Assembly (NCBI GenBank): GCA_964605525.1
Contig: CAZSCV010000005.1
Coordinates: 39,256 to 103,255, forward strand
Reading direction: 5' to 3'
DNA length: 64,000 bases
Source: an uncultured Bdellovibrionales bacterium
GTDB lineage: Bacteria > Patescibacteriota > Minisyncoccia > Moranbacterales > UBA9337
This document shows positions 1,691 through 32,418 of the stretch, one piece after another (the stretch's first letter is position 1; each line of letters opens with the position of its first letter). A model generated the notes under the pieces. That model was not told where the DNA came from and searched no databases. It saw only the letters and a program-made list of their open reading frames with translations. The position numbers were made by a program, and so were the translations under genes.

Positions 1691-1703
1691 TAAGAAGGAA
1701 AGC

Positions 1704-4575: not shown

Positions 4576-4623
4576 GGATTATACCAAAACAATGCGGTCG
4601 TCGAGTTTTTGGCATAATCATTA

Positions 4624-4812
4624 ATTACAGGAAAGTGGGGTGAGGCTTGAAAAGCATTGGTTTATCGTCTAACAATCGTCTATAATCTATGAGGGAGATA
4701 AAAAAATAAAAATAACCCCGAGGTTAAAATGGGTGGTATAATGTCTGTGGAAAGAATGATCTGGATCTGGTTTCCATTTTACCCCGAACAAGCGGAGTGG
4801 ATTTTGAAACTG
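4624..4812 (+). repeat. composite of repeat modules B', A', C', D' in the spacer upstream of the glycan locus
   Basis: B' at 4624-4649, A' at 4664-4686 (with a TATAAT), C' at 4732-4760 (tggtataat extended -10), D' at 4782-4809. The order C-D is permuted relative to the D-E-C arrangement at 1661-1833. Confidence 0.7.
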
Positions 4813-4881
4813 TCGAAATATTTGAAAGGGTTTGAGATGTGAAAAATAATTCATTTAAAAATTTTTTAACAAAAAATAAAA

Positions 4882-5688: not shown

Positions 5689-5702
5689 ATTCAATAAGAA
5701 TA

Positions 5703-7039: not shown

Positions 7040-7049
7040 ATACAAAAAA

Positions 7050-7679: not shown

Positions 7680-7697
7680 TCCATTTTATTTTTTTAA

Positions 7698-10687: not shown

Positions 10688-10698
10688 ATAAAAAAAGT

Positions 10699-12891: not shown

Positions 12892-12899
12892 TTTAATTT

Positions 12900-14770: not shown

Positions 14771-14806
14771 TTTTTTGATGTAATTATGAAAAATGTTTAG
14801 AAGCGG

Positions 14807-17466: not shown

Positions 17467-18388
17467 AATTTTTCAGAAACCATTGGTAGGTATCTTTGAT
17501 TCCTTGATTGAGTTCAATTTTGTGCTTCCAATTGAGACTGTGCAATTTGGAAACATCCAGAAGTTTTCTTGGCGTGCCATCCGGTTTCGATGTGTCATTT
17601 TTTATTTCTCCTTCAAATCCGACTATTCGCTTGACTATTTCGGCTAATTCTCGAATGGAAATATCCTCCCCGGTTCCAATGTTTACGATTTCATTTTCGT
17701 TGTAATTTTCCATTAAAAAAACGCAAGCGTCAGCCAAATCATCAACGTGCAAAAATTCTCTTTTCGGGGAGCCCGTTCCCCAAATCAATACTTCTTTTTG
17801 ATTATTGATTTTCGCTTCGTGAAATTTTCGGAGTAGGGCAGGGAGAACATGAGATGAATTCAAATCAAAATTATCATTCGGTCCGTACAGGTTTGTTGGC
17901 ATTACGGAAATATATTTTGTGCCATATTGTTTGTTATATGACTGGCACATTTTAATTCCGGAGATTTTGGCAACAGCGTAGGCTTCATTTGTTCTTTCCA
18001 GCGGTCCGGTCAAAAGATATTCTTCTTTGATTGGTTGGGGACATTCGCGCGGATAAATGCAAGAGCTTCCGAGAAAAAGAAGTTTTTTGACTTTGTTTAG
18101 ATATGCATTGTGAATAATATTGTTTTGTATTTGCAGATTTTGAAAAATGAAATCGGCGGGATAGGTATCGTTTTCCAATATTCCGCCAACTCTCGCAGCT
18201 GCCAGAAAAACATATTCCGGTTTTTCTGTTTCAAAGAATTTTTTTACTTCCTGCCAGTCGAGCAGATCTAATTCTTTGTGTGTTTTCAAAACGAGATTGT
18301 TAAATCCGTTTGATTTGAGATTGCGAATAATCGCTGAACCGACAAGTCCATTATGCCCCGCGATATATATTTTAGAATTCTTTTCCAT
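17453..18388 (-). CDS. fcl: GDP-L-fucose synthase (GDP-4-keto-6-deoxymannose 3,5-epimerase/4-reductase)
   Basis: N-terminus [19 protein letters not shown]. Adjacent to gmd. Confidence 0.85.
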
Positions 18389-18398
18389 ATGCTTTGTC

Positions 18399-19436
18399 TT
18401 ATGATTCTTTTTTCATATCCGCTTTCATCATTATTTTTACCAACTCTTTGAATTTGGTTTTCGGCTTCCAATTCAATTTCTTTGCCGCCTTTGTCGGATC
18501 TCCCAGAAGTAGATCGACTTCGGTAGGGCGGTAATATCTTGGATCGATTCTGATCATTATTTTTTTTGTATTTTCATCAATTCCAACTTCTTTTTCTTTT
18601 TTTCCTTTCCATTTCAATTTTATTTTGGCGACTTTGCAAGCCTCTTCAATAAATTCTCGCACGCTGTGAGTTTCGCCGGTTGCCAAAACAAAATCATCCG
18701 GAGTTTTTTGTTGGAGCATCAGCCACATCCCTTCCACATAATCTTTTGCATAGCCCCAGTCTCGCTTGGAGTCGATATTTCCCAAATAGAGGCAGTCATC
18801 TTTTCCGGCTAAAATTCTGGCAAGTCCGCGAGTGATTTTTCTAGTCACAAAAGTTTCTCCGCGACGCGGTGATTCGTGATTGAAAAGAATTCCATTGCAC
18901 GCATATAGATCATAACTTTCTCGATAATTTACGGTTATCCAATAAGAATATAGTTTGGCGACTCCATAGGGTGAGCGGGGATAAAATGGAGTAGTTTCTT
19001 TTTGCGGGGTTTCTTGAACAAGTCCGAAAAGTTCACTGGTAGATGCTTGATAGAATTTGGTTTTTATTCCGGATTCTTTGATTGCATCTAAAATTCTCAA
19101 CGTTCCAATACCGGTGACATCGGCGGTATATTTTGGCACATCAAAGCTGACTTTGACATGGCTTTGAGCGGCAAGGTTGTATATCTCATCCGGCTTTATT
19201 TTTTCAATTATGCGGCTAATATTGCTTCCGTCCGACAAATCTCCATAGTGCAAAAACAAACGCACATTGTTCAGGTGCGGATCTTTGTACAAATGATTTA
19301 TTCTTCCTGTGTTGAATGAGCTTGATCGGCGAATTATTCCGTGAACTTCATATCCTTTTTCTAATAATAATTCGGCTAGGTATGATCCGTCTTGTCCCGT
19401 TATTCCCGTTATTAATGCTTTTTTCTTTTTTTTCAT
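18399..19436 (-). CDS. gmd: GDP-mannose 4,6-dehydratase
   Basis: [33 protein letters not shown]. Confidence 0.9.
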
Positions 19437-19469
19437 TATCGCGCAGCGTATTAGATTTTTTACGATTGT

Positions 19470-19817
19470 TTATTGTTTGATCTCAGATTCATTGATAGCT
19501 TTTTTTCTTACGATTTCAGTCATCTGTTGTTCCAGTCTTTCGATAGCGGAGAGCAGTTTGAATATCATTAGGAATATTAAAAGAAATCCGGCAAGTATTA
19601 CGGCGTTTATATTTCCTTCAAGTCCAATTATGCGAGCCATTATATTAGTAAAAGAAGGAAAGAGCGCAATCAGAATCATTCCACCCCAGACAAAAAAACG
19701 AATGGATAGCTTATAAAAATTCTGACCCGTTTTACCTTTGACAAAATTTACAATTCCGGAATAAATCATTGATGAAGAAACTATGATCACGATAATTTGA
19801 TATAGATGTAGAGACAT
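19470..19817 (-). CDS. DUF2304-family small membrane protein (commonly paired with GT2 enzymes)
   Basis: 115 aa with 3 TM segments and a C-terminal charged tail. Family resemblance only. Confidence 0.45.
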   Translation of the reverse strand: MSLHLYQIIVIIVSSSMIYSGIVNFVKGKTGQNFYKLSIRFFVWGGMILIALFPSFTNIMARIIGLEGNINAVILAGFLLIFLMIFKLLSAIERLEQQMTEIVRKKAINESEIKQ

Positions 19818-19910
19818 AATATTTGTAATTTATTTTTTCTAATGTTGATTGTAGCAATTTTTTTTAAATTGAACAACTATATGTCGTAACTTGTTAATTT
19901 AAAAAATAAG

Positions 19911-19950
19911 ATACCCAGCTGTTTTAAGGCTGGGTTTTTTGTAAGTTACT
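19911..19950. terminator. bidirectional rho-independent terminator
   Basis: Hairpin cccagctgttttaaggctggg flanked by an A-run and a T-run. It lies between two minus-strand genes, at the low-GC / higher-GC boundary. Confidence 0.7.
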
Positions 19951-19975
19951 TGTTTTTTGAATGGCAACTAGTGCA

Positions 19976-20335
19976 TTATTCCTTGGTTGCTCGAATAGCA
20001 ACCGGATATGCATTAGTTCCAGGTGTACATCCGGAAACATAAAAATATACCGTAAGTCCTTCTGCTTGTGCAACTTCCATGGCGATGGACATGCGGTCAC
20101 CATTAGTGCTCACTGTTCCATCCAGATTTATTAATTGAATGTCGATGTATGTTGCTGATCCGCAGCCGTCGGGATTGGTTAGGACTGATAATGGTTCCAC
20201 ACGAAAAATATCGTCACTTACGTAATAAGTTTGACCGATTAAAGTCGGTCCGATCCAGCCAGCACCGAAAGTCGTATTTGCTAAAAGTAAAAATGGCAAC
20301 ACAACAAGTAGAAACAGGGGGGTTGTTTTTTTCAT
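19976..20335 (-). CDS. small secreted protein (signal peptide, 2 Cys), function unknown
   Basis: N-terminus MKKTTPLFLLVVLPFLLLANTTFG. 4-nt overlap with the upstream FN3 gene. Higher GC than the genome background. Confidence 0.5.
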   Translation of the reverse strand: MKKTTPLFLLVVLPFLLLANTTFGAGWIGPTLIGQTYYVSDDIFRVEPLSVLTNPDGCGSATYIDIQLINLDGTVSTNGDRMSIAMEVAQAEGLTVYFYVSGCTPGTNAYPVAIRATKE

Positions 20336-20970
20336 TGGATACTCCTTTTCTTTTTTAATAGGATTATTCTTGTTGCGGATCCTTTTACAATCCGCGATGT
20401 TCCATCAATCATTACAACCGTAAACATTACGGACTTTCCGTAATATCCGGTTGCATCATATGGAGATACTGCGAAGAAGTATCTTCCGTCGGCGAGGCTC
20501 AAAGTCGAGAGGTCGAGCGACGTTGTCGCTCCGACATCAATTTCGTTGGTGGTGCCTCCTTTGACGGTGTCATAGAATACTGAGTATCCTGCGACGTCAC
20601 CAGCCCCCGCTGTCCAACTCAGGATTGTTCCCGTGGTGATGATGGGAGTGGAGGGACTTTTGAGACCGAAATTGATGTAATACGGGACAGCGTGAGCGTC
20701 AGTCGCTGCATCTCCCGTTCCGAATGTAAAAGTGTTAACACCTTCCGTGAGCGCAGAGGTTTTGAATTCCCCGCTACAAACTCCGGAAGTATCGGTGAAT
20801 GTGAAAGTATATATGAGTACTTGTTCATGATATACCCTTACGGTATCGTCGACTATATTACTGCAGTCGACAGATGTTCGAATCGTTGCTTCTTCGGCGA
20901 TTACTGTTCCAGTCCAAAAAAACAACAAGAAAAACCATAAAAATTGAAAAATCAAAAATCGTCTCTTCAT
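20332..20970 (-). CDS. secreted protein with a fibronectin type III-like domain
   Basis: Signal peptide, then an FN3-like signature (W..G..v.GY.vfyd....ttsLdLstLsladGrYfFaVspyDatG). Strong SD (gggagg) upstream. Confidence 0.5.
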   Translation of the reverse strand: MKRRFLIFQFLWFFLLFFWTGTVIAEEATIRTSVDCSNIVDDTVRVYHEQVLIYTFTFTDTSGVCSGEFKTSALTEGVNTFTFGTGDAATDAHAVPYYINFGLKSPSTPIITTGTILSWTAGAGDVAGYSVFYDTVKGGTTNEIDVGATTSLDLSTLSLADGRYFFAVSPYDATGYYGKSVMFTVVMIDGTSRIVKGSATRIILLKKKRSIQ

Positions 20971-21222
20971 TTCTCCTCCCTCGCCTCCCTTATTTCAGGA
21001 GACTTTTTATTTTATTGTCAAAACAACTATTTCTTATCCTTATATCACTATTTTGCCGTATTTTGGAAAAAAAGCAAGTTTTTTTGATGTTGAGATTGAC
21101 AAATGAGGTTGAGATAGGGGATAATGGGAAATCATAGAAATATGGTTGTTGGTTGCAGTTGTTTGACAAATGAATAATGGAATAATGATTGATGAATATA
21201 AAATTATATAGGAGGAAGGAAG

Positions 21223-22378
21223 ATGAAAGATATGAAGATAATCGGATTGGAAGATGTTTTGAAAAAGGCGAAAAAATATGCCGCTACGGATGTTCCGATT
21301 CTCATCACTGGAGAGCCGGGAGTGGGGAAGGAAGTTGTGGCGGAATTTATTCACAGGAATAGTTTGCGTGCGGAAAGAGTTTTCAATCCGCTTAACTGTG
21401 GGGCCGCTAATGGCCTCGTGGACAGCGAACTTTTCGGACACAGAAAGGGCTCTTTTACGGATGCTCGCTTTGATCGCCCGGGACGTTTGATGGCATCTGC
21501 TGGCGGGACGGTTTTTTTGGACGAGATTGGCGATATGCCGACTTCCGTTCAAGCAAAAATCTTGCGGTTTTTGAACGGCAGAGGCGAGATTCAGCAAATC
21601 GGGGCGGACCGTCCCGTATATGTTGAAACGCGCATAATTTGCGCAACAAATCAGTTGCTCCGAAAAATGGTTTCAGAAAAAACGTTTCGGAGAGATTTGT
21701 ATAGTCGGATTTCCGGGTTTGAAATTCACATTCCGTCGCTTCGCGAGCGCAGGGATGAGATTCCAACTTTTCGTGGAACATTTTTTTGAGTATTTCACTG
21801 AGAAATATCAAAAAAAATGGTGTCGCGATTTCATTATCCCTCGTCTTACAGAGCTGGCGATGGAAATGTCATGGCCGGGGAATGTCAGGGAATTGATGGG
21901 TTGGATCGAGAAGTTTGTTGTTCTTGAAGATCTTGAGACAGCCTGTTGTTCTAGTAAAAAAGAAATAAAGATCATCAGGAGTGTTCCTGATGATGCAATG
22001 GGAAAATGCATTATAATTCCGGAGAAAGAGTTTCCCCTTTTTCCCGAGGAGGTTGGTTTTGAAAAAATTCCGGTTGAAGGTGGTTTTGTGGATGGGGAAT
22101 GCTTTGCACCTAATTGTGCAAGCGGGGATTTTCAGCCGTTGTCATTGAGTTTTAATCCGTTTGTTCTCGATAATTTCCGTTTTTTGGAAATGGATGAACC
22201 TCAAAAAAAAGAAGCTTTGAAAAAAGCTCTTGAAAAAAATAATGGGGTTGTAACGGCGGCTGGAAGGGATTTGGGCTTGCCCGAATCTTCGGCTAGCTAT
22301 TTCGTAAAAAAATTGGGGCTTATTGAGTATGCAAGGGAACTCAAAAAAGCCGCAAAAAAATCGGAAAAATCCGCTTGA
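21223..22378 (+). pseudogene. sigma-54-dependent transcriptional activator (AAA+ bEBP, PspF-like, no sensor domain), disrupted by a +1 frameshift near 21768
   Basis: Walker A GEPGVGKE, GAFTGA-loop variant GSFTDA and RRDLYSRI in frame 1. WPGNVREL and a C-terminal Fis-type HTH in frame 2 (ORF 21719..22378). Removing one A in ccaactttt restores EIPLFVEHFFEYF. Confidence 0.75.
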
Positions 22379-22385
22379 TTTAAAA

Positions 22386-22421
22386 CAGGATCGGCACAAA
22401 TGCGCCGACCCTGTTTTTTTG
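22386..22421 (+). terminator. rho-independent terminator
   Basis: Hairpin caggatcggcacaaatgcgccgaccctg followed by T7. Confidence 0.7.
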
Positions 22422-22431
22422 TCTTTTAAAT

Positions 22432-22476
22432 TTAATGTACCAGTTTCCAGAGCATTTTCCAGACGGTTTTGATGCC
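22432..22476. repeat. 45-bp direct repeat, copy 1, duplicating the 3' end of the GT2 gene at 23805..24494; the second copy is 23805..23849 (the native 3' end)
   Basis: 44/45 identical. The reverse complement encodes GIKTVWKMLWKLVH plus a stop, which is the C-terminus of the GT2. The copies bracket the second AbiE-like cassette. Confidence 0.85.
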
Positions 22477-22553
22477 ACTTGTAAGGGCAAATTGACAATA
22501 TTTCAAGTTATGATAAACTGAAAGTAAGAAAAAATAACACTTTTAGTCTATAT

Positions 22554-23126
22554 ATGGATAATTTTCTGACAATTATATATGGTTCAAAACAAACGGTTTT
22601 TACCAGCAAAGAAATCGCTATTTTAATCGGGGAAAAAAATGCCGATAAACTCAAGTCAAAGTTGTCCTATTATGTGAAAACCGGAAAATTGATCCGGCTT
22701 CGTCGTGGAATTTTCTCAAAAAAAGATGATTATGACAAAAATGAACTGGCTGTCAGAATTTTTACTCCGGCATATGTGAGTTTTGAAACGGTTTTAGCAA
22801 AAGAAGGCGTGATATTTCAATATTATGAAACAATTTTTGCAGCCAGCTACCTTTCGCGGAATCTGAAATTCAGGGAAAATAAATTTACGTTTCGAAAACT
22901 CAAAAGTGAGATATTGATTAATCAGCAAGGATTAATAAATCGAGGGACGTATTTTGAGGCATCAAAAGAGCGAGCTTTTTTGGATATGTTGTATTTGTTT
23001 GGAAGCTGTCATTTTGATAATCTTCGAAATATCAATTGGAATACTTGTTTTGATATTGTCGGTATATATAAAAACAAAATGCTGGAAAAAAGACTTAAAA
23101 ATTATTTTGAAAAATATGCTAAATAA
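22554..23126 (+). CDS. AbiEi-like antitoxin/regulator (type IV TA, putative)
   Basis: 190 aa, directly upstream of and overlapping the AbiEii-like gene. Its own TTGACA-N16-TAAACT promoter lies at ~22492-22520. GC is at genome background, unlike the surrounding island. Confidence 0.45.
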   Translation: MDNFLTIIYGSKQTVFTSKEIAILIGEKNADKLKSKLSYYVKTGKLIRLRRGIFSKKDDYDKNELAVRIFTPAYVSFETVLAKEGVIFQYYETIFAASYLSRNLKFRENKFTFRKLKSEILINQQGLINRGTYFEASKERAFLDMLYLFGSCHFDNLRNINWNTCFDIVGIYKNKMLEKRLKNYFEKYAK

Positions 23127-23808
23127 AGAAAAACACAGACTGGTTATGGCGCAAATATTAAAAGATATTTATTCTGATATCTCTATTGCATCTCTGTTGG
23201 GTTTTAAGGGTGGTACGGCAGCATATTCATTTTATGAATTGCCGAGATTTTCTGTTGATTTGGATTTTGATTTATTGGATGACTCTGAATCAAACAGGAA
23301 TTTGATATTCGAAAAAATAAAAAATATTATTTCAAAATACGGTGAAATCAAGGACAAACAACAAAAATTTGCGACTATATTTTTTGCTCTTTCATATGAA
23401 TCAGGTGAGCATCAAATAAAGGTTGAAATAAATATGAGAAAAACCGGTGCCAGTTATGAAATGAAAAATTATTTCGGCATACCGGTTTTGGCAAGTACCA
23501 AAGAGTCTATGTTTTCGGCAAAACTAGTGGCACTTTTGAATCGCAAGGAATTTGCGGCGCGGGATCTTTTTGATGTGTATTATTTTCTCAAAAACAATTG
23601 GGGGACTGATAATAATGTTTTTGAATCATATAATATTTCGTCTGAAAAAGAATATATCAAAAAGTGCGTTTCTTTTGTTGAAAACGTTCCGGAGAATACT
23701 TTATTGAAAAATCTCGGAGAGCTTATTGATGAAAAGCAAAAAGAATTTGTCAAAACAAAAATAAAAGACGAGGTAATTTTTATGTTAAAGGCTCGTTGGA
23801 ATATTTAA
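23116..23808 (+). CDS. AbiEii/AbiGii-family nucleotidyltransferase toxin (DUF1814)
   Basis: LLGFKGGTAAYSFYELPRFSVDLDFDLL motif. Start is the in-frame ATG at 23116; an alternative is 23146. Confidence 0.7.
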   Translation: MLNKEKHRLVMAQILKDIYSDISIASLLGFKGGTAAYSFYELPRFSVDLDFDLLDDSESNRNLIFEKIKNIISKYGEIKDKQQKFATIFFALSYESGEHQIKVEINMRKTGASYEMKNYFGIPVLASTKESMFSAKLVALLNRKEFAARDLFDVYYFLKNNWGTDNNVFESYNISSEKEYIKKCVSFVENVPENTLLKNLGELIDEKQKEFVKTKIKDEVIFMLKARWNI

Positions 23809-24494
23809 TGCACCAGTTTCCAGAGCATTTTCCAGACGGTTTTGATGCCGTTGGCAAGCGATTGCTTTTGAGCTTTTCCCATTGAGTATTCTGTATAGCG
23901 GACTTGAATGGGGATTTCTTTGTATTTAAGTTTGTATTTGTATATTTCCCGGATTACTTCGCTGTCATATTCATATCGGTCGCCAAGAGTGTTGATGACT
24001 TCGGCGGCGCGACGGGAATAGGCGCGCAATCCCGATTGACTGTCGGTAACCCAAAGACCATAGAGATACCAGGTGATGGCGTTGCCGATTTTGTTGTGGA
24101 TGATTTTGTACCAAGGCATTCCTTCAGGATTCATCAGACGCGAACCCAAAACCACGTCGCAATTTCCTGAGGCGATAGGGGAGATGAGGCGCGCAATGTC
24201 TTTGGGGTCATGCTGTCCGTCGGCATCCATTGTGATGATAATATCAGCGCCCAAAAGTTTGGCGGCTTCAATACCGGTTTTGGCGGCCGCTCCTTTTCCG
24301 CGGTTGATTTTGTGCCGGAGCGCCGTGGCGCCGGGAATTTCCTTGGATTTGGAAAAAGTGCCGTCCGCGCTTCCGTCGTCGACGATAATGATTTTTTCAT
24401 ATCCGGCATCGCGGATTTCTTTGGCAACATCAGCAATAACCTTTTCTTCGTTGTAAGCGGGAATAACGATATAAATTTTTTCGTTGTTTTTCAT
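23805..24494 (-). CDS. glycosyltransferase family 2 (polyprenyl-phosphate sugar synthase, DPM1-like)
   Basis: IYIVIPAYNEEKVI...IIVDDGSADGT. Noticeably GC-rich. Confidence 0.8.
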   Translation of the reverse strand: MKNNEKIYIVIPAYNEEKVIADVAKEIRDAGYEKIIIVDDGSADGTFSKSKEIPGATALRHKINRGKGAAAKTGIEAAKLLGADIIITMDADGQHDPKDIARLISPIASGNCDVVLGSRLMNPEGMPWYKIIHNKIGNAITWYLYGLWVTDSQSGLRAYSRRAAEVINTLGDRYEYDSEVIREIYKYKLKYKEIPIQVRYTEYSMGKAQKQSLANGIKTVWKMLWKLVH

Positions 24495-24517
24495 ATTTGT
24501 TATTATATGTCATTTTT

Positions 24518-24561
24518 GAAAAATAAAAAACCCCGCCAAGCGCTCGTGGCGCATGGCGGGG
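24518..24561 (-). terminator. rho-independent terminator for the lipoprotein gene
   Basis: Hairpin ccccgccaagcgctcgtggcgcatggcgggg followed on the minus strand by a T-run. Confidence 0.65.
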
Positions 24562-24568
24562 GCAAAGG

Positions 24569-25042
24569 TTATTCTAAATAGACTACTTCTATCTCATTTG
24601 AATGATCACTTATGTATACCAAGCGGTGTTCAAATGGATAATACGCTATTACTTTGTTAGTGAAGTAGTATTTTTTGATTCCCGGAACTGTTTGGATTTT
24701 TATTTTTATCCATGGAGACCTCACACCGGAAACCTCCCTCTTGGAAACTATAAAAATCCGATCATAATTTCCGCTTTGGGTGCCGTAGGATATTATATAT
24801 CCCAGTATCGTTTCTCCGTATCCCTCTTCGGCATACGAGAAATTTTCAATAGACGTATCTATTAATATGTTATCAATAAATCGTTCTTTTCTTTTATTAT
24901 CATCCGGTGTATCCCATGCGAAAGTTAGCGAAACTTCTTTTTCTAAATTTCTTTCGACAACAAGATGTGACTGCGACGTGCAAGCTGCCAGTGGCAACAA
25001 TATCGACAACAAAAATAAAACAGATAAGAGATGTTTCTTCAT
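24569..25042 (-). CDS. lipoprotein, function unknown
   Basis: Signal peptide with lipobox LAAC. Confidence 0.5.
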   Translation of the reverse strand: MKKHLLSVLFLLSILLPLAACTSQSHLVVERNLEKEVSLTFAWDTPDDNKRKERFIDNILIDTSIENFSYAEEGYGETILGYIISYGTQSGNYDRIFIVSKREVSGVRSPWIKIKIQTVPGIKKYYFTNKVIAYYPFEHRLVYISDHSNEIEVVYLE

Positions 25043-25054
25043 TATAATACCTCA

Positions 25055-25996
25055 TTATTTTTCAGTTTTGGGTTTGAAATACGGATTTGGAAATCCGTAT
25101 TTAATTTCCGTTGACGGACCTGAGATCTCACCGCTTGAGAGGTAGAGAATGCAGGCGATATAAAAAACGATATCGCGCTGGTTTTTCCATTGGTGTACTG
25201 TTGTAGTTATGACAAGTGACTTTGCGGGATTTTCCGGTGTGGCAGTCAGACCCACATCGATTACGTGGTCATACTTCCGGCTCTCGGTGCCGTACAAGAT
25301 TTTGTAGCCGGCAAGCTTCTCCTCTTCCAGATTTTTATCCCACACCAATTTTATTTCTGGGGTCCGGATTATGACATTTCCCTTCTTGTCTTTTTCCAAT
25401 GACACGAATTTCGCGTCCTTTTCCTTTTCGGTTTTATTTTTATACCGGATAAAGAAATATGGACGTCGGATATCCGAGTCGTCGCCATCGGAAATTCCGT
25501 CATTGTCGGAATCAGGGTCGATGATGTTTGGAATGTTGTCTTCATCGAAGTCGATTTTGTTTTCGACTCGATCAATTCCCCAAGTTGCCAATTCTTCGCC
25601 GTCAGGAATCCCATCTTCATCGGAATCCGCTTTTTTTGGATCGGTTCCGATTTTTTGTTCGAAATCATCCGCCAACCCGTCCTTGTCGGAGTCGATTTGA
25701 TTTTCTCCGATTTGAAAAAGGATGATCTCCTCGGACGGAGGCATTTCCCTCCTGTCTTTGACAAATGAAACAGAAATGAAATTCGGCGCATCCAAATAGA
25801 GCGGAAGAGTGGAAACACTGACCTCGGTTAAATTTTCAACCGTGATTTTTTCCGAATAATCACGGGAATGCTTCCCGATTCGGATGATGTACTCCTTTAC
25901 GGTTATATCCGGCAATTTCGGCCAGATAATTTCGTATCCTAATGCAACGTCGGAACACGAAAAAACAAAGCAAAAAATCAGGAATACTTTTTTCAT
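25055..25996 (-). CDS. secreted calcium-binding protein with thrombospondin type-3-like DxDxDG repeats
   Basis: Signal peptide plus repeated DSDKDGLADD, DSDEDGIPDGEE, DEDNIPNIIDPDSDNDGISDGDDSD motifs. Confidence 0.55.
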   Translation of the reverse strand: MKKVFLIFCFVFSCSDVALGYEIIWPKLPDITVKEYIIRIGKHSRDYSEKITVENLTEVSVSTLPLYLDAPNFISVSFVKDRREMPPSEEIILFQIGENQIDSDKDGLADDFEQKIGTDPKKADSDEDGIPDGEELATWGIDRVENKIDFDEDNIPNIIDPDSDNDGISDGDDSDIRRPYFFIRYKNKTEKEKDAKFVSLEKDKKGNVIIRTPEIKLVWDKNLEEEKLAGYKILYGTESRKYDHVIDVGLTATPENPAKSLVITTTVHQWKNQRDIVFYIACILYLSSGEISGPSTEIKYGFPNPYFKPKTEK

Positions 25997-26090
25997 GGCA
26001 AAACCTCTCGGGTTTAATATGTTGAATTGTTAAGAAGCTGTTTTTTGTTTTCATAAAAGTCTAGCATATTTTCGCATAAAAGCAATACTG

Positions 26091-26123
26091 CTACAAAATC
26101 TCGCGATCGTGAGTGTTTTGTAG
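26091..26123. repeat. 33-bp imperfect palindrome ctacaaaatctcgcgatcgtgagtgttttgtag; second copy in inverted orientation at 30858..30890
   Basis: A 22-nt core tacaaaatctcgcgatcgtgag is identical between copies. It sits between a terminator and the next promoter. Confidence 0.7.
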
Positions 26124-26139
26124 TGTGGGAATGTGGGAA

Positions 26140-26179
26140 ATAAAAAAGGACTCATGCAAGGCAATGCTTGCATGAGTCC
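26140..26179 (-). terminator. strong rho-independent terminator for the 646-aa protein gene
   Basis: Perfect 13-bp stem ggactcatgcaag/cttgcatgagtcc followed on the minus strand by TTTTTTATTT. Confidence 0.8.
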
Positions 26180-26203
26180 TGTTGTGTCGGGTTTCCGACG
26201 TTA

Positions 26204-28144
26204 CTATTTCAAACAAGATAACAGTGAATGATCGGAAGAGTGATCGAATTCAAATTCGCTTACTCCTGCCATTCTGACAGTGCGATTTGTTCCAACCCCG
26301 TGGACTACTGAGATGATGGGATTGTCATATCCCTTCTCTTGCCACGAAAATTGGTGGAGCTTGTCCGTTTCGAATACATCACCATTTTTAGTTTTTGTAT
26401 CCAGAGACTCGGTTTCCCCTGTTGCCTCGACAAATACGAACGGTACTCCGTCGATGAGCATATGGTTTGAAAATGGATCTGTGATCACCCTTTCCGCCGG
26501 AATATTTTCCGCCTGCACTAACGTGACGGCATGACCTCGTCCGAAAAAGTTGAGGGTTCCGATGGCAACTGTGCTGGTGTCGCCGAGGACGGTGTTCTCG
26601 GCGGAAAAATAAAGCGTTGCCATGGCAATGGCATGTCCCTCGCAGTCTTCACCGCGATTGAGCATTGCCATTGGAAGTGTCATTGGAATTTCCTCGGGAC
26701 TGTTATTTCCGGACTTACTTCCATCAAACTTCTTGTCGGAAATATAGTCCAGATCTCGGGCCGAAAAATCGGAAATTTTTTGAAGTGCCTCTGGTTTAGT
26801 TGAGGCATCTCCGATGATTTCCTTGGCAAGTCTTTCAGTGGAGGGCGTTTTGACGATGTATGCCGCAAGATAGCTGTCGCCAAAATTACTATTTCCGTTG
26901 CCGGGATAGAGCGGTAAGACTTTCGCCCGGCGGTTTTCCTCGACTTGCTGTTGCGCAACAAGAATGTCGCGATATGTTATTGACTTGTCGCGTTTGGCGC
27001 CGAGTACAATTGGATCATCTTGACCCATTTTCGCCAAATAGGAAAACGGGATGATGATTGATTGTGTCGGGTCGAGTGACCCAAAAAAGAGCAGTTCATT
27101 GCGGGAATTCCGCAATGGAACTGCCACTTCGTCGTACCCGTCAACTTCGTGACCGTTTTTGTCGGTTTTTTTCCAGGCGACAACGGTCATATCGACAGGA
27201 AGGTCTGCTGAATACACAGGACGTGCATTTAGACCGCTTCCTGTAATCTCGATTTTTTTCGGATCAAGATATGCTCCATAAGCGGCAGCATATTGATTCG
27301 AAATCAGTCGCGTTGTTCGCTCCTGATCCCACTCGCCAGTCTCCCAATCGCAAAGATTAGTGAGGATATAGTAGGCAACTAGGAGAGATTCTTCCGGTTC
27401 TAGATTGGGCGTTCCTAATTCAACACTGGTTTTGTCCCGGCGCCCCTTGCCATTGGGGTGCAAAAATATATAGATGTCGCCCGAAAGGTCGATCCAGCGT
27501 GTTTCGCCGTCGGCGAATTGCCGATTGAAACCAGTAAGACCTTGCATTCCATCTGTTTCGAAAAACGGATTGGACATATAATAATCCGAGCCTTGAACAA
27601 GCGCGCCATTACTGCCGGAGAAATCTCCATATGGTACTGAAGAGAATGCCATCGAAAAATTTTCCCTTGCTACGATTTCCGTGTTCATTTTTCCCTCTCT
27701 TGCGATTCGAGAGGGGAGAACCCAGTCCATCGCTGTGGTTCGCGAAAGGTATTTCCTTGCCGCGTTGTACGCGGCAAAACTTACAGGATCATTCAGCTCC
27801 CGATTTTTTCCGTCGCCTTCGACAATAGAAATCGTGTCGCCGAGAGCGAACCTTCCATTGACGAAGTCAAGCCATGAAATCGTGATGGACTGGATGTGAA
27901 GATCTTTTTCGATGCTGGAATATGGGATGTGATACACCCCTCGATAGGGGTGATGGATTTTTGCTGCATTGGATACGGCATATTCGACCGCGAACCCTCC
28001 GCCGACAAAAAACGCAATTGTGAAAAATATCCCCAGCCATTTGAAAACAGATTTTGCAATTTGTTTTCTGGGTTGGAAATTACCGCTTGTTGTTCCGGAA
28101 ACATGCTTTGCTTCCGGCCAATTCAGTTTTTCCAGATAACTCAT
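26204..28144 (-). CDS. N-terminally membrane-anchored extracellular protein (646 aa) with a C-terminal transglutaminase-like Cys-His-Asp core
   Basis: TM helix WLGIFFTIAFFVGGGFAV near the N-terminus. Candidate C-terminal triad GEDCEGHAIAMATLYF ... GHAVTLV ...(18 aa)... DP. GC-rich. Confidence 0.45.
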   Translation of the reverse strand: MSYLEKLNWPEAKHVSGTTSGNFQPRKQIAKSVFKWLGIFFTIAFFVGGGFAVEYAVSNAAKIHHPYRGVYHIPYSSIEKDLHIQSITISWLDFVNGRFALGDTISIVEGDGKNRELNDPVSFAAYNAARKYLSRTTAMDWVLPSRIAREGKMNTEIVARENFSMAFSSVPYGDFSGSNGALVQGSDYYMSNPFFETDGMQGLTGFNRQFADGETRWIDLSGDIYIFLHPNGKGRRDKTSVELGTPNLEPEESLLVAYYILTNLCDWETGEWDQERTTRLISNQYAAAYGAYLDPKKIEITGSGLNARPVYSADLPVDMTVVAWKKTDKNGHEVDGYDEVAVPLRNSRNELLFFGSLDPTQSIIIPFSYLAKMGQDDPIVLGAKRDKSITYRDILVAQQQVEENRRAKVLPLYPGNGNSNFGDSYLAAYIVKTPSTERLAKEIIGDASTKPEALQKISDFSARDLDYISDKKFDGSKSGNNSPEEIPMTLPMAMLNRGEDCEGHAIAMATLYFSAENTVLGDTSTVAIGTLNFFGRGHAVTLVQAENIPAERVITDPFSNHMLIDGVPFVFVEATGETESLDTKTKNGDVFETDKLHQFSWQEKGYDNPIISVVHGVGTNRTVRMAGVSEFEFDHSSDHSLLSCLK

Positions 28145-28164
28145 TTTTTCCTCCTCCTTTTTTG

Positions 28165-28533
28165 TCAGGAAATTCCGCCGGATAATTCTCTGATTCTCCA
28201 GAAAACTCCCGGCATAGAAACTGCGTTCGTATATTCCTCAAGAAAATAGCTATATACCTTTCTTTCGGAGTTGAAGCGAACCTCAACGGTTCGGTGTTTT
28301 TTCTTTGCAAGTATTACGATACTTTTCAGTTCATAAGAACTCATATCACGATCATTGCATCTTGCGATGCAATCTTCTCCGATGCGGTACATATAGACAT
28401 CTACGTACGGAATCGGATCACTGCTTTCAAATTCTGTTGCATTATTTCCACCCTCTGATCGAACGGTGAATATCAGGAATACGCAAAATATCATCAGAAA
28501 ATCCACAAAACGGCGCAATAATGCTTCTCTCAT
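28165..28533 (-). CDS. ExbD/TolR-like single-pass membrane protein (putative)
   Basis: N-terminal TM helix with a conserved Asp (RRFVDFLMIFCVFLIF), then a ~90-aa domain patterned like the ExbD periplasmic domain. ATGA overlap with the upstream MotA/ExbB-like gene. Confidence 0.4.
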   Translation of the reverse strand: MREALLRRFVDFLMIFCVFLIFTVRSEGGNNATEFESSDPIPYVDVYMYRIGEDCIARCNDRDMSSYELKSIVILAKKKHRTVEVRFNSERKVYSYFLEEYTNAVSMPGVFWRIRELSGGIS

Positions 28534-29228
28534 AATGTTTTCTCCTTATTGAGTCGCAGAATCACGATAAAAGTTTTGAGCAGGATTTTTCTTTCCTCCT
28601 CCACTACGGTATTAAGGGTTAAAATTACCAATCCTCCGTACAATGCTAGAATAGTAGTATCCATTGCCAGATCGGCTCCAGCGAGCATTGAAGCAACCGA
28701 CGAACTTTTCTCATGGCATGCCAACTTGAACCCGACGAGCGTGCCAATTAAACCCAGTGCGGCAAGAATATAATCCAAATATTTCACCGCATTTGTGGAG
28801 CGAAGAAAAACTTCCTCGAAATAATTATCCAACCCATTCTTCACTTCATCCGACCAATTTCTTTGGTTGGCCAGAGAAAGCTTTTGAAAATGCTGAACAA
28901 GAATTGAATCGAAAAATTTCTTAGATAATGGAAGTTCTCCGCGTTGCAGGCTGGTGTCATTTGTGTATGCAATCATCCTCTCAATCAATATCGCTTCACT
29001 TTTTGTTGAAAAAAGTGTTGCGATTGATGAAATTATTCCAATCGCTATGATTGCCGAAATGGCAATCATTAGCGGATTGGAAAAATCCATTTTTTGAACA
29101 ATCGGCATTTTTGCCAGAAAAAACGTCAACAAAAATACCGCCATCATCGTTTGTAAATATTTCCAGATAAAAACGGTTGAATCTTTGATGGTTCTTGTTG
29201 TTTTTGTGATTTCCAAAGTTTTTTCCAT
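28530..29228 (-). CDS. MotA/TolQ/ExbB proton-channel family protein
   Basis: C-terminal TM pair with family signature LAALGLIGTLVGFKLA ... AMDTTILALYGGLV. Confidence 0.55.
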   Translation of the reverse strand: MEKTLEITKTTRTIKDSTVFIWKYLQTMMAVFLLTFFLAKMPIVQKMDFSNPLMIAISAIIAIGIISSIATLFSTKSEAILIERMIAYTNDTSLQRGELPLSKKFFDSILVQHFQKLSLANQRNWSDEVKNGLDNYFEEVFLRSTNAVKYLDYILAALGLIGTLVGFKLACHEKSSSVASMLAGADLAMDTTILALYGGLVILTLNTVVEEERKILLKTFIVILRLNKEKTL

Positions 29229-29393
29229 TTGCCTCTTCCTCCTCCATAGATTTGCGGGGATATCCCGCTAGTTCGATATTCAATTGTCAAATTACTACAA
29301 AACTTCGAAAATTCCGATTATTCGGACTTTTCTTGTATTTGCTTTAATTATCCATTTCTTGTGTTTTAAAGTCAAGCTTTTTTACGTTTTTAT

Positions 29394-29422
29394 TGACAAA
29401 ACCTTGGAAGTTTCTTATTCTT
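29394..29422 (+). promoter_or_regulatory. sigma-70-like promoter TTGACA-N17-TATTCT upstream of ugd
   Basis: Sequence match. A strong SD (ggagaggag) lies 6 nt before the ATG. Confidence 0.5.
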
Positions 29423-29525
29423 GCAGAAAGTTGTTTGAAAAAATGGTTATGCTAAAATAAAAGCATAAAAAATAAAAAATCCCAAATTCGGGAAAAACTT
29501 CCCGAGATAGGGAGAGGAGAAAAGA

Positions 29526-30839
29526 ATGAATATTGCAATAATTGGTTCGGGTTATGTTGGGCTGGTCACTGGTGCGTGTCTAGCGGAATTTGGGCATCGG
29601 GTCATCTGCATGGATAAAGACAGCAGTAAAATCGAACGGCTTCGTAACGGCGAGATGCCCATTTACGAACCGGGATTGGATGCCTTGGTGGTCAAGAACG
29701 TCAAAGACGGCAGGTTGTCCTTCACCAGCAATATGGAAGAGAGCGTCAGTCAGGCCAAAGCTGTTTTTATCGCCGTGGGCACCCCCTCGTCCCGTCGTGG
29801 CGACGGCTATGCTGACTTGACCTATATTTATGCTGCAGCCAGGGATCTGGCCCCGTATTTAGGCAAATACACGGTGGTGGTTGATAAGAGCACCGTCCCG
29901 GTTGGCACAGCCAGACAGGTTGCGCGCGTCATAAGAGAGGCAAATCCCGCCGCCCAGTTTGATGTGGTTTCCAACCCGGAATTTTTACGGGAAGGCGCGG
30001 CAATCAATGATTTTATGCGTCCGGACCGGGTGGTCATCGGAATTGAGACGGAACGGGCCAGCGAGGTCATGAAAGAAATTTATAATCCTCTATACCTGAT
30101 CGCCACCCCATTTGTCTTAACCGGACTTGAAACCGCCGAACTGATCAAATACGCCTCAAATGCCTTCCTGTCGATGAAGATCTCGTTTATTAACGAGATG
30201 GCAAATGTGTGCGAGGTCTTGGGAGCGGATGTTATTGATCTGGCCAAAGCCGTTGGGCTTGATGGGCGCATTGGAAGGAAATTTTTACATCCCGGTCCCG
30301 GTTATGGTGGTTCCTGCTTTCCGAAAGATACATTGGCTTTGTTGCGAATTGCGCAGGAGAATGGAGTTCCAATTCGAACTGTCGCGGCAGCAGTTGAGAC
30401 TAATGCTGCTCAAAAAGCGGCGATGGTGAAAAAGATTCGTGACGCCCTCGGCGGTTCGGAGGCCGGCAAGACTATCGGAGTTCTTGGCTTGACTTTTAAG
30501 CCGGAAACGGATGATTTGCGAGATGCTCCGGCACTAACGATCTTGCCACCTCTTTTTGAAAAGGGGGCAAAAATTCAGGCGCACGATCCACAAGGAATGA
30601 CAGAGTGCGCCAAAATGTTTCCGGAATTTTCTTATGTTGGAGATGCGTACGAGGCAGCCGAGGGCGCGGATGTTCTCGTGCTGATGACAGAATGGAATCA
30701 GTATCGCGCGCTTGATTTGCAGGAGCTGAAATCCAGGATGAAAGCCTTGGTATTTGTTGACCTGCGCAATGTGTATAATCATAAGCAGGTGAAGGATGCC
30801 GGATTTACGTATGTTGGCGTAGGACGGGGAGGGTTGTAA
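29526..30839 (+). CDS. ugd: UDP-glucose 6-dehydrogenase
   Basis: MNIAIIGSGYVGLVTGACLAEFGHRV and the catalytic GGSCFPKD motif. The most GC-rich gene in the window by eye. Confidence 0.85.
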   Translation: MNIAIIGSGYVGLVTGACLAEFGHRVICMDKDSSKIERLRNGEMPIYEPGLDALVVKNVKDGRLSFTSNMEESVSQAKAVFIAVGTPSSRRGDGYADLTYIYAAARDLAPYLGKYTVVVDKSTVPVGTARQVARVIREANPAAQFDVVSNPEFLREGAAINDFMRPDRVVIGIETERASEVMKEIYNPLYLIATPFVLTGLETAELIKYASNAFLSMKISFINEMANVCEVLGADVIDLAKAVGLDGRIGRKFLHPGPGYGGSCFPKDTLALLRIAQENGVPIRTVAAAVETNAAQKAAMVKKIRDALGGSEAGKTIGVLGLTFKPETDDLRDAPALTILPPLFEKGAKIQAHDPQGMTECAKMFPEFSYVGDAYEAAEGADVLVLMTEWNQYRALDLQELKSRMKALVFVDLRNVYNHKQVKDAGFTYVGVGRGGL

Positions 30840-30857
30840 GGTCTGCGCCAAAATATA

Positions 30858-30890
30858 CTACATTTTTCTCACGATCGCGAGATTTTGTAG
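30858..30890. repeat. second copy (inverted) of the 33-bp palindromic element
   Basis: ctacatttttctcacgatcgcgagattttgtag; see 26091..26123. Confidence 0.7.
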
Positions 30891-30910
30891 TATATATTTG
30901 ATGAGTGTAA

Positions 30911-30958
30911 AAATAGCAAAGCTCCGATAATCATGATTGATTGCCGGAGCTTTTTTTA
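30911..30958. terminator. bidirectional rho-independent terminator
   Basis: Hairpin agctccgataatcatgattgattgccggagct followed by T7; an A-run lies upstream. Confidence 0.7.
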
Positions 30959-30978
30959 TGGAGCGGGAGAAGTAGCTT

Positions 30979-31116
30979 TTATTTAAAGACTACGAAAATT
31001 ACCACAGGACCCTTGCCGCCAATACGCATTGGCTCTCCGCACGCCTCAATGGACTCAGGGGCGGTGTTCTCAAACTCTTCAATCGTGATCGGTACTGCCT
31101 TTTTTTCAGAAGACAT
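30979..31116 (-). CDS. small ORF (45 aa, MSSEKKAVPITIEEFENTAPESIEACGEPMRIGGKGPVVIFVVFK), hypothetical
   Basis: Not in the >=60-aa ORF track. Perfect SD aaaggaggtgactt 7 nt upstream of the ATG. GC-rich like the island. The plus-strand ORF 30941..31162 over the same DNA lacks an SD. Confidence 0.35.
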   Translation of the reverse strand: MSSEKKAVPITIEEFENTAPESIEACGEPMRIGGKGPVVIFVVFK

Positions 31117-31140
31117 AAGTCACCTCCTTTCGGTGTTTTT

Positions 31141-32418
31141 TTATCTTCCTATCCCTTTGTAAATCACTCCTTGCTTTTCAAAAGCTATTTTGTCGAGGCA
31201 GTTTTTGCCGTCGATTATGATTTTTATTTTGTGCTTTTTGAAAAGTTTCGGGTCGATTTCTTTGAACGCCTTGTGGTCGGTTACCAAGACAACTGCTTCA
31301 GATTTTTTCAGCAATTCCTCAATATTTTTAACAGTGGACATTTTCGGAAAATAGGGGTCAAAGATTTCCACTTTAGCTCTGTGTTTTTTGATTTCTTCAA
31401 TTACCTTGAGAGCGGGAGTTTCGCGCAAATCATCAACATTGGCTTTGTAAGAAAGTCCAAGAATTCCGATTTTGGTTCCGTTGAGAGGTTTTTTTATTTT
31501 GTTCAATTCCTCGTGCAGAAGCTCAACAGTATAAAGTGGCATTGAGTTGTTTATTTTTCTGGCTATTTTGAGGAATTCATGGTCAAAACCGGAAAGCTTG
31601 GCGCGCTCAATCAAATAATACGGATCAACCGGAATACAATGTCCGCCAACTCCGCAACTTGGCCAGTGAGCCATAAAAGAGAAGGGTTTGGTGGAAGCGC
31701 CAGTAATCACATCTTTGACATCAATCCCCATTTTGTCGAAAGATTTTGCCAGCTCGTTAACAAAAGCGATGTTAATGTCGCGGAAAGAATTTTCCACCAC
31801 TTTCACCGCTTCAGCTTCACGAATTGATTTCATCGGAAAAATTTCTGCGTCAATGATTGCTCGGTAAAAATTCAAGGCTTTGTCTAATCCTTGTTTGTCA
31901 AATGATCCAACTACGCGTGGAATGTTTGTTACGTTCCATTTCGGATCTCCAGGGTTGATTCGTTCCGGGCAATGCGCCAAAAAATAATCTTTTCCAACTT
32001 TGAATCCCGCTTCGGCAAACATCGGTTCAACTATTTCTTCACAAACGCCGGGATTGATAGTGGATTCAATGACAATCAGTTGTCCTTTTTTGAAATTGCG
32101 AACAATTGACGCAACTGCTCCGCGCACCGGACTCAGATCCGGAAAAAATAATTTATCAACAGGAGTGGGAACACAAACCAAAACAATGTCGGATTGTTTG
32201 ATTATTTTTTCATCAGTAGTAGCCGTGAGTTTCACGATAGGAAGATTTTTGTGCAAAAATTCTTCTTCAATGGGACTTTTTCCTGCTTGAATTTTTTTAA
32301 TTTTTTCTTTGTCCATATCTAGACCGAAGACCTCAAAACCTTTGAGCGCCGATTGGACGGCAAGAGGGAGCCCGACATAACCCAAACCGATGATGCAAAC
32401 CTTTGCTGTGTTTTTCAT
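31141..32418 (-). CDS. nucleotide-sugar dehydrogenase (UDP-N-acetyl-D-glucosamine/mannosamine 6-dehydrogenase family, TviB/WbpA-like)
   Basis: VCIIGLGYVGLPLAVQSALKGFEVFGLD. Length 425 aa. Confidence 0.75.
   Translation of the reverse strand: MKNTAKVCIIGLGYVGLPLAVQSALKGFEVFGLDMDKEKIKKIQAGKSPIEEEFLHKNLPIVKLTATTDEKIIKQSDIVLVCVPTPVDKLFFPDLSPVRGAVASIVRNFKKGQLIVIESTINPGVCEEIVEPMFAEAGFKVGKDYFLAHCPERINPGDPKWNVTNIPRVVGSFDKQGLDKALNFYRAIIDAEIFPMKSIREAEAVKVVENSFRDINIAFVNELAKSFDKMGIDVKDVITGASTKPFSFMAHWPSCGVGGHCIPVDPYYLIERAKLSGFDHEFLKIARKINNSMPLYTVELLHEELNKIKKPLNGTKIGILGLSYKANVDDLRETPALKVIEEIKKHRAKVEIFDPYFPKMSTVKNIEELLKKSEAVVLVTDHKAFKEIDPKLFKKHKIKIIIDGKNCLDKIAFEKQGVIYKGIGR

Follow-up and report, generated by a model that had tools for sequence, protein, structure and literature searches.

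The 64-kb window analysed here (the whole stretch of 64,000 nucleotides, itself part of a 103.7-kb metagenomic contig) contains an interval of raised GC content, and the question it raises is whether that interval arrived as a unit or was assembled piece by piece. The interval extends over about 19.8-31.1 kb, from the gene for a small DUF2304 membrane protein to a wecC-like nucleotide-sugar dehydrogenase gene. It includes ugd (UDP-glucose 6-dehydrogenase), a GT2 glycosyltransferase gene, an AbiE cassette, a sigma-54-activator-like gene and a module of genes for surface and secreted proteins. The original prediction had described an island of about 11 kb, bounded by terminators and with signs of layered acquisition, through which the surface and secreted-protein module was acquired horizontally. 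Comparison with six related contigs of the candidate phyla radiation (CPR), from which the layering described below is read, makes a different history likely: a recombination-prone, variable envelope and glycan locus built in independent steps rather than as one unit. The idea of layered acquisition was right in spirit, in that transfer of ugd and mobility of AbiE can both be demonstrated. Import of the module as an island is contradicted, as its gene families are found in CPR only and its parts vary independently in relatives. Judged by its protein clusters, the host is an ultra-small CPR bacterium of Parcubacteria/Moranbacteria-like type: its SecA belongs to a 90% cluster that also contains 'Parcubacteria group bacterium Athens0714_25', and its GT2 clusters with Candidatus Moranbacteria.

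The layer with the clearest origin is ugd. Its product contains the N-terminal NAD-binding, central and C-terminal UDP-binding domains of the family (PF03721, E 2.3e-67; PF00984, E 4e-37; PF03720, E 1.4e-32). UDP-glucose 6-dehydrogenases are defined by a GxGxxG dinucleotide fold and a catalytic cysteine in a GGSCFPKD-type motif. Both are present in the translation, as IIGSGYVG and GYGGSCFPKD, and the closest homologues are named UDP-glucose 6-dehydrogenase in their source databases. The top matches, 86-91% identical, are labelled Desulfobulbaceae, Desulfurivibrio and Thermodesulfobacteriota; dozens more at 75-85% are labelled Desulfobulbales, and the isolate Desulfocapsa sulfexigens DSM 10523 has a protein at 76%. 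Against a Desulfobulbaceae metagenome-assembled genome (MAG), identity is 91% at the amino-acid level and 82.6% at the nucleotide level, and the nucleotide match is confined to 29522-30823, the coding sequence. On the donor side, the gene context of epimerases, ugd, a PAS-sigma54 activator, PilZ and a PEP-CTERM protein is conserved in three lineages, and because of this conserved neighbourhood ugd can be regarded as native in Desulfobulbales. When both flanks were searched against all loci, as nucleotides and in six-frame translation, no non-CPR match turned up outside the coding sequence. On these comparative grounds, the evidence establishes ugd as a gene acquired horizontally from a donor in the sulfur-cycling Desulfobulbales, a clear case of transfer between phyla.

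The insertion, which lies between the MotA-like operon and wecC, amounts to a single gene with about 0.45 kb of flanking sequence. About 150 nt of the inserted DNA precede ugd, a palindrome follows it at 30857-30890, and none of the flanks can be traced to the donor. In two related loci, L007 and L008 (loci are cited here by L numbers and proteins by P numbers), the site is empty: the wecC-like and MotA-like genes are direct neighbours there, separated by a spacer of 137-162 nt that bears promoter-like boxes. Since the entire empty-site spacer survives in the window, the limits of the insertion can be placed at about 29376-31140 (Table 1). The 45-aa open reading frame (ORF) downstream of ugd is 64% identical in L003, absent from L007 and L008, and without a homologue in the donor contigs. 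Near GT2, more distant Moranbacteria-like loci (L009, L010 and L013) hold another ugd, at 41-50% identity, and the captured gene may for this reason take the place of a native gene of the Moranbacteria type.

A palindromic element of about 34 nt (CTACAAAATCTCGCGATCGTGAG...TTTTGTAG) occurs at 26091-26124 and at 30857-30890, 3' of the 646-aa gene and of ugd, respectively. Its core is also found at matching places in L003 and L088, as well as in L001 and L002, which have the same sequence as the window. When up to 3 mismatches to the ugd-side copy were allowed, no further copies were found in the 64 kb of the window; such a search also missed the more diverged copy at 26091-26124.

The remaining units of the interval do not travel together. 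Each of ugd, AbiE, the activator, the lipoprotein gene and the MotA/646/TSP3 module is present or absent independently of the others across L003, L006, L007, L008 and L088. L003 is without the activator, AbiE and the lipoprotein; L006 is without the MotA/646/TSP3 module, so that GT2 abuts ugd there; L007 and L008 are without ugd, and L007 is also without AbiE. Within the whole gene content, a clear foreign clade was found for ugd only. The donor searches led to Desulfobulbales for ugd but to no identifiable donor for the module genes.

AbiE is the second unit whose movement can be followed. The likely ATG start of AbiEii at 23116 gives an 11-nt overlap with abiEi, and a 230-aa gene is likewise called in L006 and L091. 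AbiEi is 99.5% identical in amino-acid sequence to its L006 counterpart. The direct repeats that flank the cassette are 91% identical and spaced 1373 nt apart. The cassette together with GT2 is 96% identical to L006 at the nucleotide level, and the adjoining DNA is 82-85% identical. L003 and L007 are without the cassette, and the activator or a secreted-protein gene adjoins GT2 there. No recombinase is encoded in the cassette. These comparisons mark AbiE as a small mobile cassette of 1.37 kb that was recently shared among CPR relatives. The repeat duplicates the last ~53 nt of GT2, and the same layout is seen in L006 (3842-3888 and 5216-5261).

The activator-like gene, a sigma-54-activator-like AAA+ gene without an N-terminal sensor domain, is a probable pseudogene decaying by frameshift. 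It is split into two ORFs by an extra base (+1 frameshift) near 21765, with the break falling between RDEIP and LFVEHFF. The same split is present in 3 other assemblies, one of them from a different pipeline. Intact orthologues (P0137 and P0138; 391/399 aa) lie beside GT2 in L006 and L007 and read ...RDEIPLFVEHFF... over the break. The closest matches of the window activator are from CPR. Co-transfer of a donor sigma-54 activator with ugd was considered and rejected: the window protein is just 45% identical to the activator next to the donor ugd, no closer than unrelated phyla, and on this ground did not travel with ugd. GAFTGA is the consensus loop of sigma-54 activators, through which they contact sigma-54. 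The loop reads GSFTDA in the window and GSFTDA or GSFTNA in P0137-P0139, and the canonical GAFTGA was not encountered. These proteins form a CPR-specific clade of sensor-less sigma-54-type AAA+ proteins, always beside GT2, that may act independently of sigma-54. A count of -24/-12 promoter-like sites (TGGCAC-N5-TTGC-like) gave 43 against 37.6 expected, which is no enrichment, and none lies upstream of the module genes. L008 has a 500-aa activator-like ORF instead, 32-36% identical and in the opposite orientation.

GT2 acts as a conserved anchor of the locus. Its amino-acid identity is 93-96% in L003, L006, L007 and L008, other genes of those relatives being at 75-87%, and it is rich in GC at third codon positions (GC3) in most relatives too. 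In the Moranbacteria-like loci L009-L015 and in the Desulfobulbaceae-labelled loci L016-L018 and L026, GT2 is followed immediately by DUF2304; in the CPR loci of this group (L009-L015), gmd, fcl and a 499-aa GT2/FkbM gene come next. The two genes are about 4 kb apart in the window, with the genes of the secreted pair, the activator gene and the AbiE cassette lying between them. Outside CPR, the proteins nearest to the window GT2 are labelled Desulfobulbaceae, at 57-61% identity, compared with 45% at most for other CPR. An older or repeated exchange between this CPR lineage and Desulfobulbaceae through GT2 and DUF2304 is therefore possible, as far as these affinities can tell. The labels of the L016-L018 and L026 pairs are Desulfobulbaceae, Desulfocapsa or 'delta proteobacterium', with DUF2304 47-57% identical. 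The content of L016, a polysaccharide locus of generic type that includes an IS1634 transposase, is not diagnostic of its 'Desulfobulbaceae' label.

The surface module consists of seven genes: a secreted FN3-like pair (119 and 212 aa), a 232-aa MotA/TolQ-like protein, a 122-aa MotB-like protein, a 646-aa membrane-anchored protein, a TSP3-repeat protein and a lipoprotein. The 646-aa family comprises 6 clusters among 5.8 billion, of which the two with a source name read 'bacterium' and 'Patescibacteria group bacterium'. The contigs examined that carry it (L003, L008, L088 and L089) are syntenic with the window, and L008 encodes a homologue at 78%. For the MotA-like protein, which is restricted to CPR, 16 representatives were found among 1.84 billion. 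Even in the distant L089, at 32-54% identity, a secreted pair of 118 and 204 aa and then genes for 231, 126, 618 and 273 aa lie between DUF2304 and GT2. The cassette between GT2 and wecC is 65-96% identical in L003 and L008. In L007, the module is 29-38% identical between flanks that are 86-94% identical. Because presence or absence and divergent alleles are flanked by conserved GT2 and wecC, the unit can be described as a replacement cassette between conserved anchors. Its distribution identifies the module as lineage-restricted, hypervariable and, by its phyletic range, native to the CPR clade rather than imported. The moderately raised GC of the module is common to close relatives and is not evidence of recent import.

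L088 is a mosaic relative to 26204-29228, with a 647-aa protein at 70%, TSP3 at 65%, the MotA-like protein at 29% and a 134-aa partner at 49% over part of its length, which suggests recombination breakpoints inside the module operon. L090 (JGI 3300016457 contig 161051) carries repeated and inverted GT2/DUF2142 gene pairs beside a homologous module at 12666-21489 and is apparently a further glycan locus prone to rearrangement, in a distantly related CPR bacterium. Four loci in the comparison, L008, L010, L011 and L015, bear the title 'uncultured Bdellovibrionales bacterium'. The gene order of the CPR locus, with 63-93% identical proteins, is found in L008 and L011, and the adjacent GT2-DUF2304 pair (52-68%) in L010 and L015; the four labels are probably wrong.

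Pfam matches none of the 119-, 212-, 157-, 646-, 122-, 232- and 45-aa products, and the predicted functions come from profiles and motifs. The secreted pair had been called FN3 proteins. No FN3 domain is found by Pfam in either, but a conserved W...GY.VFY...Y.F.V motif and an all-beta single-sequence model of the 212-aa protein, of low confidence (predicted local distance difference test score, pLDDT, 50), make FN3 plausible. The MotA-like assignment fared similarly. The 232-aa protein alone has no Pfam match even at E<=10, but the 16-member family profile matches TolQ, MotA, PomA and ExbB structures at E values of 1e-5 to 5e-3. Of the 16 representatives, 13 match PF01618, at best with E 7.7e-12. 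These matches back membership in the MotA/TolQ/ExbB family at the level of the whole group of proteins. The 122-aa gene overlaps the MotA-like gene, and the invariant Asp11 of its product precedes a hydrophobic helix. Pfam and PDB sequence searches returned no significant match for this protein, and by analogy it would be a MotB/ExbD/TolR-like partner. A membrane helix lies at the N-terminus of the 646-aa protein, and 1 of 6 members of its family matches Transglut_core (PF01841) weakly (E 0.031); the protein may be transglutaminase-like. It gave no significant PDB sequence match, and an AlphaFold2 model from a 6-sequence alignment was poor (pLDDT 34). A Zorya-like defence role gained no support: PADLOC is blank for the MotA-like, 122-aa, 646-aa and TSP3 proteins, and a weak ZorA match (E 0.59) is superseded by the TolQ and MotA matches. 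Taken together, the module is a candidate envelope machine, driven by ion-motive force and acting on the cell surface.

The predicted compositional anomaly is real, although its outline differs from the one proposed. Three tiers can be distinguished, with GC contents of 30.1% at 1-16500, 42.3% at 19951-31120 and 38.6% at 31121-64000 (0.301, 0.423 and 0.386). In 2-kb windows, the interval 19951-31120 lies 3-6 standard deviations (SD) above the core in GC and at a tetranucleotide distance of 3-8 SD, so that both profiles differ as expected. Of the low-GC flanks that had been claimed, the left one is confirmed but the right one is ordinary core. The left glycan cluster at 1-16500 is the larger anomaly, with GC z scores down to -8.4 and tetranucleotide z scores up to 11.5. 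Per-gene GC, GC3 and codon z scores were computed against 25 core genes (Table 1). On this scale ugd is indeed the most GC-rich gene and the MotA-like gene is core-like, as had been said. AbiE, called background-like, is far below the core, and the 157-aa lipoprotein gene forms another low patch. Codon choice was atypical for GT2, the TSP3 gene and the 646-aa gene (log-likelihood z -2.2 to -2.9). In the 119-aa gene, GC is raised at codon position 2 alone (GC2 z +2.9, GC3 z -1.4), and this restriction points to amino-acid composition, not mutational bias. GC by itself would thus mis-draw the island, as it lumps the true xenologue with native GC-rich genes and overlooks the stronger anomaly in the low-GC left flank. 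The content of 1-16500 is not kept in L003, which shows about 26% identity to one GT4. To the right of this cluster, gmd, fcl and the GT2/FkbM gene are conserved in L011-L015.

The proposed boundaries carry the hairpins that were described, and both fold far better than shuffled controls. They are ordinary ends of transcription units, however, rather than island borders. No tRNA was found within the 64-kb window, and no integrase domain was found among the window genes scanned with Pfam. The proposed island ends have no direct repeats; the sole flanking repeat pair brackets the AbiE cassette.

Table 1. Coordinates, composition and supporting evidence for features of the window. GC z scores refer to the core genes; percentages are identities.
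Feature	Position	Strand	GC	GC z	GC3	Remarks
Glycan cluster, left flank	1-16500		0.301			30.1% GC
DUF2304 small membrane protein, ancestral GT2 neighbour	19470..19817	-				Pfam PF10066 E 1.1e-16; now 4 kb from GT2
Hairpin with T-run, left boundary	19913..19935					Terminator of secreted-pair operon; minimum free energy -19.3 kcal/mol, folding z -4.3
119-aa secreted protein	19976..20335	-				Signal peptide; L089 homologue (32%) adjoins DUF2304
212-aa secreted protein	20332..20970	-				Putative FN3-like C-terminal motif; 60% identical L003, 54% L089
Sigma-54-activator-like AAA+ gene, probable pseudogene	21223..22378	+	0.473 (N-terminal part)	+5.0		PF00158 E 1.5e-54; AAA_lid_14 E 1.4e-8
Direct repeat, left copy	22430..22485					56 nt; duplicated fragment of GT2 3' end
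AbiE cassette			~0.31	about -5.3		
AbiEi antitoxin/regulator	22554..23126	+				PADLOC AbiEi E 2.4e-61
AbiEii nucleotidyltransferase toxin	23116..23808	+				PADLOC AbiEii E 7.5e-66; Pfam PF08843 E 1.9e-18
Direct repeat, right copy	23803..23858					56 nt; functional GT2 3' end
GT2 glycosyltransferase	23805..24494	-	0.474	+5.0	0.539	PF00535 E 3.9e-26; predicted polyprenyl-phosphate sugar synthase type
157-aa lipoprotein	24569..25042	-	0.354	-2.7		Lipobox LAAC; absent L003; present but divergent L088
313-aa secreted protein, bacterial TSP3 calcium-binding repeat	25055..25996	-	0.430	+2.2		PF18884 E 3.6e-9; 85% identical L003, 38% L007
646-aa membrane-anchored protein	26204..28144	-	0.472	+4.9		Rare CPR-only family; invariant Cys501/His538/Asp556
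122-aa single-pass membrane protein, putative MotB/ExbD/TolR-like partner	28165..28533	-	0.404	+0.5		Invariant Asp11 in FVDFL
232-aa divergent MotA/TolQ/ExbB proton-channel family member	28530..29228	-	0.383	-0.8		Family profile
Ancestral promoter-bearing spacer of MotA-like operon	29229..29375					Homologous to whole empty-site spacer of L007/L008 (alignment, blastn)
ugd insertion, approximate limits	29376..31140					ugd upstream region, ugd, palindrome, terminator, 45-aa ORF; absent L007, L008
ugd, UDP-glucose 6-dehydrogenase, Desulfobulbales-type xenologue	29526..30839	+	0.509	+7.3	0.534	Three Pfam domains
Hairpin terminator, right boundary	30919..30950					Common to convergent ugd and 45-aa ORF; folding z -5.0 on minus strand
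45-aa ORF	30979..31116	-	0.471	+4.9		Only where ugd present
Core flank, 33 kb	31121-64000		0.386			secA and other housekeeping genes
wecC-like second nucleotide-sugar dehydrogenase, conserved right anchor	31141..32418	-				Pfam; 86-87% identical L003, L007, L008

Five independent steps best explain these layers. A lone ugd gene of Desulfobulbales origin entered the site that separates wecC from the MotA-like operon, where, with its own promoter, it would most likely supply UDP-glucuronate to the neighbouring glycosyltransferases and may replace the native Moranbacteria-type ugd that relatives carry nearby. The 1.37-kb AbiEi/AbiEii cassette entered at the 3' end of GT2, duplicating 56 nt, and the activator-like gene that is intact in relatives has decayed here through its frameshift. 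A further layer is the fast-diverging, lineage-restricted module of the secreted pair, the MotA/TolQ-like, MotB-like, 646-aa and TSP3 proteins and the lipoprotein, whose putative function was outlined above. These insertions split GT2 and DUF2304, which were ancestrally adjacent.

Several readings compete with this stepwise assembly. A single acquired island from 19.95 to 31.12 kb, delimited by terminators, carrying the surface and secreted module and later invaded by AbiE, would fit the mean GC and tetranucleotide composition, which is unlike that of the core, the hairpins at both ends and the clearly foreign ugd within the block. The comparative loci already contradict such a model, as its parts come and go independently among L003, L006, L007 and L008, the module families are CPR-restricted and cluster with DUF2304 and GT2 even in L089, donor similarity ends at the ugd coding sequence, and the proposed ends show no tRNA, integrase or boundary repeat; it is very improbable. 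An assembly or binning artefact, in which the ugd segment is a chimera of CPR and Desulfobulbales DNA, might be suspected from the metagenomic origin of the sequence and the abrupt GC step at ugd. The junctions are identical, however, in two further ENA assemblies (L001 and L002), and diverged versions of them are present in other samples, in contigs from JGI and Logan (L003, L006 and L088). Because they recur in independent assemblies and diverged genomes, a chimera is excluded, and because the nucleotide match to the donor is just 82.6%, ugd is not co-assembled donor DNA; the chance of such an artefact is practically nil.

Some observations weigh against the stepwise reading, and there are two further alternatives. 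Donor taxonomy rests on the database labels of MAGs and on gene context, and the function of the module on weak or profile-level similarity and poor structure models. GC3 exceeds the core value in GT2 (0.54, +4.5 SD), the TSP3 gene (0.49, +3.2) and the 646-aa gene (0.48, +2.7), and an older foreign origin of these three genes is possible in view of it. The same values, together with the core-atypical codon choice and the Desulfobulbaceae affinity of GT2 and DUF2304, which hints at older exchange, argue against the proposal that ugd is the sole transfer and that raised GC elsewhere reflects amino-acid composition (the secreted proteins are rich in Gly, Ala, Thr and Asp) or codon selection in native CPR genes. 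That proposal agrees with the position-2 effect in the 119-aa gene, with the CPR-restricted module genes and with the recurrence of the same GC pattern in L003, L007, L008 and L088 despite 17-24% nucleotide divergence. In the distant L089, module GC is 0.40-0.43, near that of presumably core genes such as mnmA (0.41). We regard it as tenable but less probable than not, and as the strongest of the competitors. The number of ugd captures is a separate matter. Desulfobulbales-type ugd might have entered the CPR clade repeatedly, or been refreshed at the same site by recombination with donor DNA, since the window copy is nearer to Desulfobulbaceae (91% in amino acids, 82.6% in nucleotides) than to the other CPR copies (83-85% in amino acids), the syntenic L003 copy being at 84% in amino acids and 78.4% in nucleotides. 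A neighbour-joining tree places it inside a Desulfobulbaceae subclade, apart from L003 and P0022. In addition, GC3 is about 0.52-0.53 in the window and in L003 (10001-11314) despite about 22% nucleotide divergence, compared with about 0.38 in the core, with no amelioration visible. Against this, the CPR copies have homologous upstream sequence (150-300 nt), downstream palindrome and 45-aa ORF that the donors lack, and the full-length copies from CPR, three in number, each have 437 aa, compared with 435 aa for most of the closest Desulfobulbales copies. The phylogeny does not decide the matter firmly: CPR monophyly is recovered in just 52% of neighbour-joining bootstraps, and derived-site patterns favour a single acquisition only 5:2:0, with 5 derived residues common to the three CPR copies and 2 common to the window and donors. 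A single capture followed by unequal rates is favoured on these data, and repeated entry appears unlikely.

The stepwise history gives the locus a wider interest. The locus illustrates how the surface of a streamlined genome can diversify, with conserved anchors, swappable cassettes, a toxin-antitoxin system that duplicates a gene end and a xenologue that possibly replaces a native enzyme. For almost all CPR bacteria the host is unknown, and the recent, sharply bounded capture from Desulfobulbales provides a concrete candidate for a host or neighbour; the GT2/DUF2304 pair, with the same phyletic affinity, likewise points to Desulfobulbales as a candidate. A bolder combination of these ideas would make the seven-gene set, which stands beside GT2 and DUF2304 even at 32-54% identity and is hypervariable between strains, an undescribed ion-driven surface motor for host contact, specific to Moranbacteria-like CPR, with Desulfobulbales as the host; the affinities of ugd and GT2/DUF2304 would then stem from physical association. 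This is speculative and, in our estimate, quite unlikely.

Several features of the locus can be set beside known systems. In their overlap and their strong matches in PADLOC and Pfam, the abiEi and abiEii genes resemble the AbiE type IV toxin-antitoxin and abortive-infection system, and on that basis the pair is assigned to it. The window copy differs in being a small cassette within a 56-nt duplication of a host gene 3' end, without a recombinase. The PEP-CTERM/exosortase exopolysaccharide locus of Desulfobulbales has an orthologous ugd (86-91%) beside a sigma-54 activator, but the ugd coding sequence alone is common to it and the window.

The module can be compared with the ion-driven 5:2 motors MotAB, ExbBD, TolQR and ZorAB through the match of the 232-aa family profile and through the overlapping gene for a putative single-pass partner with an invariant aspartate. 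The window MotA-like protein itself lies below Pfam detection, and the 646-aa, TSP3 and FN3-like partners match no known output of such motors (flagellum, TonB, TolA or ZorCD). The module, with its unusual partners, is a candidate for a new 5:2-motor output in bacteria without an outer membrane.

Flexible 'replacement' islands for O-antigen and capsule offer a parallel to the architecture. They share conserved anchors (here GT2 at 93-96% and wecC at 86-87%) around variable content with divergent alleles (29-38%), as well as atypical GC and embedded nucleotide-sugar genes (ugd, gmd and fcl). The window cassette holds a MotA/MotB-like pair and large secreted or anchored proteins instead of glycosyltransferases, and its host is a CPR bacterium, with a poorly understood envelope. 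Groundwater Patescibacteria have been reported to carry hundreds of islands and single-gene transfers, mostly from within the phylum and occasionally from other donors, including Desulfobacterota (PMC12455944, mSystems 2025). Neither 'UDP-glucose' nor 'Moranbacter' occurs in that report. The capture of ugd and the sharing of AbiE fit the reported pattern; the difference is that the donor lineage, insertion site, empty sites and one-gene extent are here resolved for a specific event. The locus is a well-resolved example of documented transfer in Patescibacteria and not a new category.

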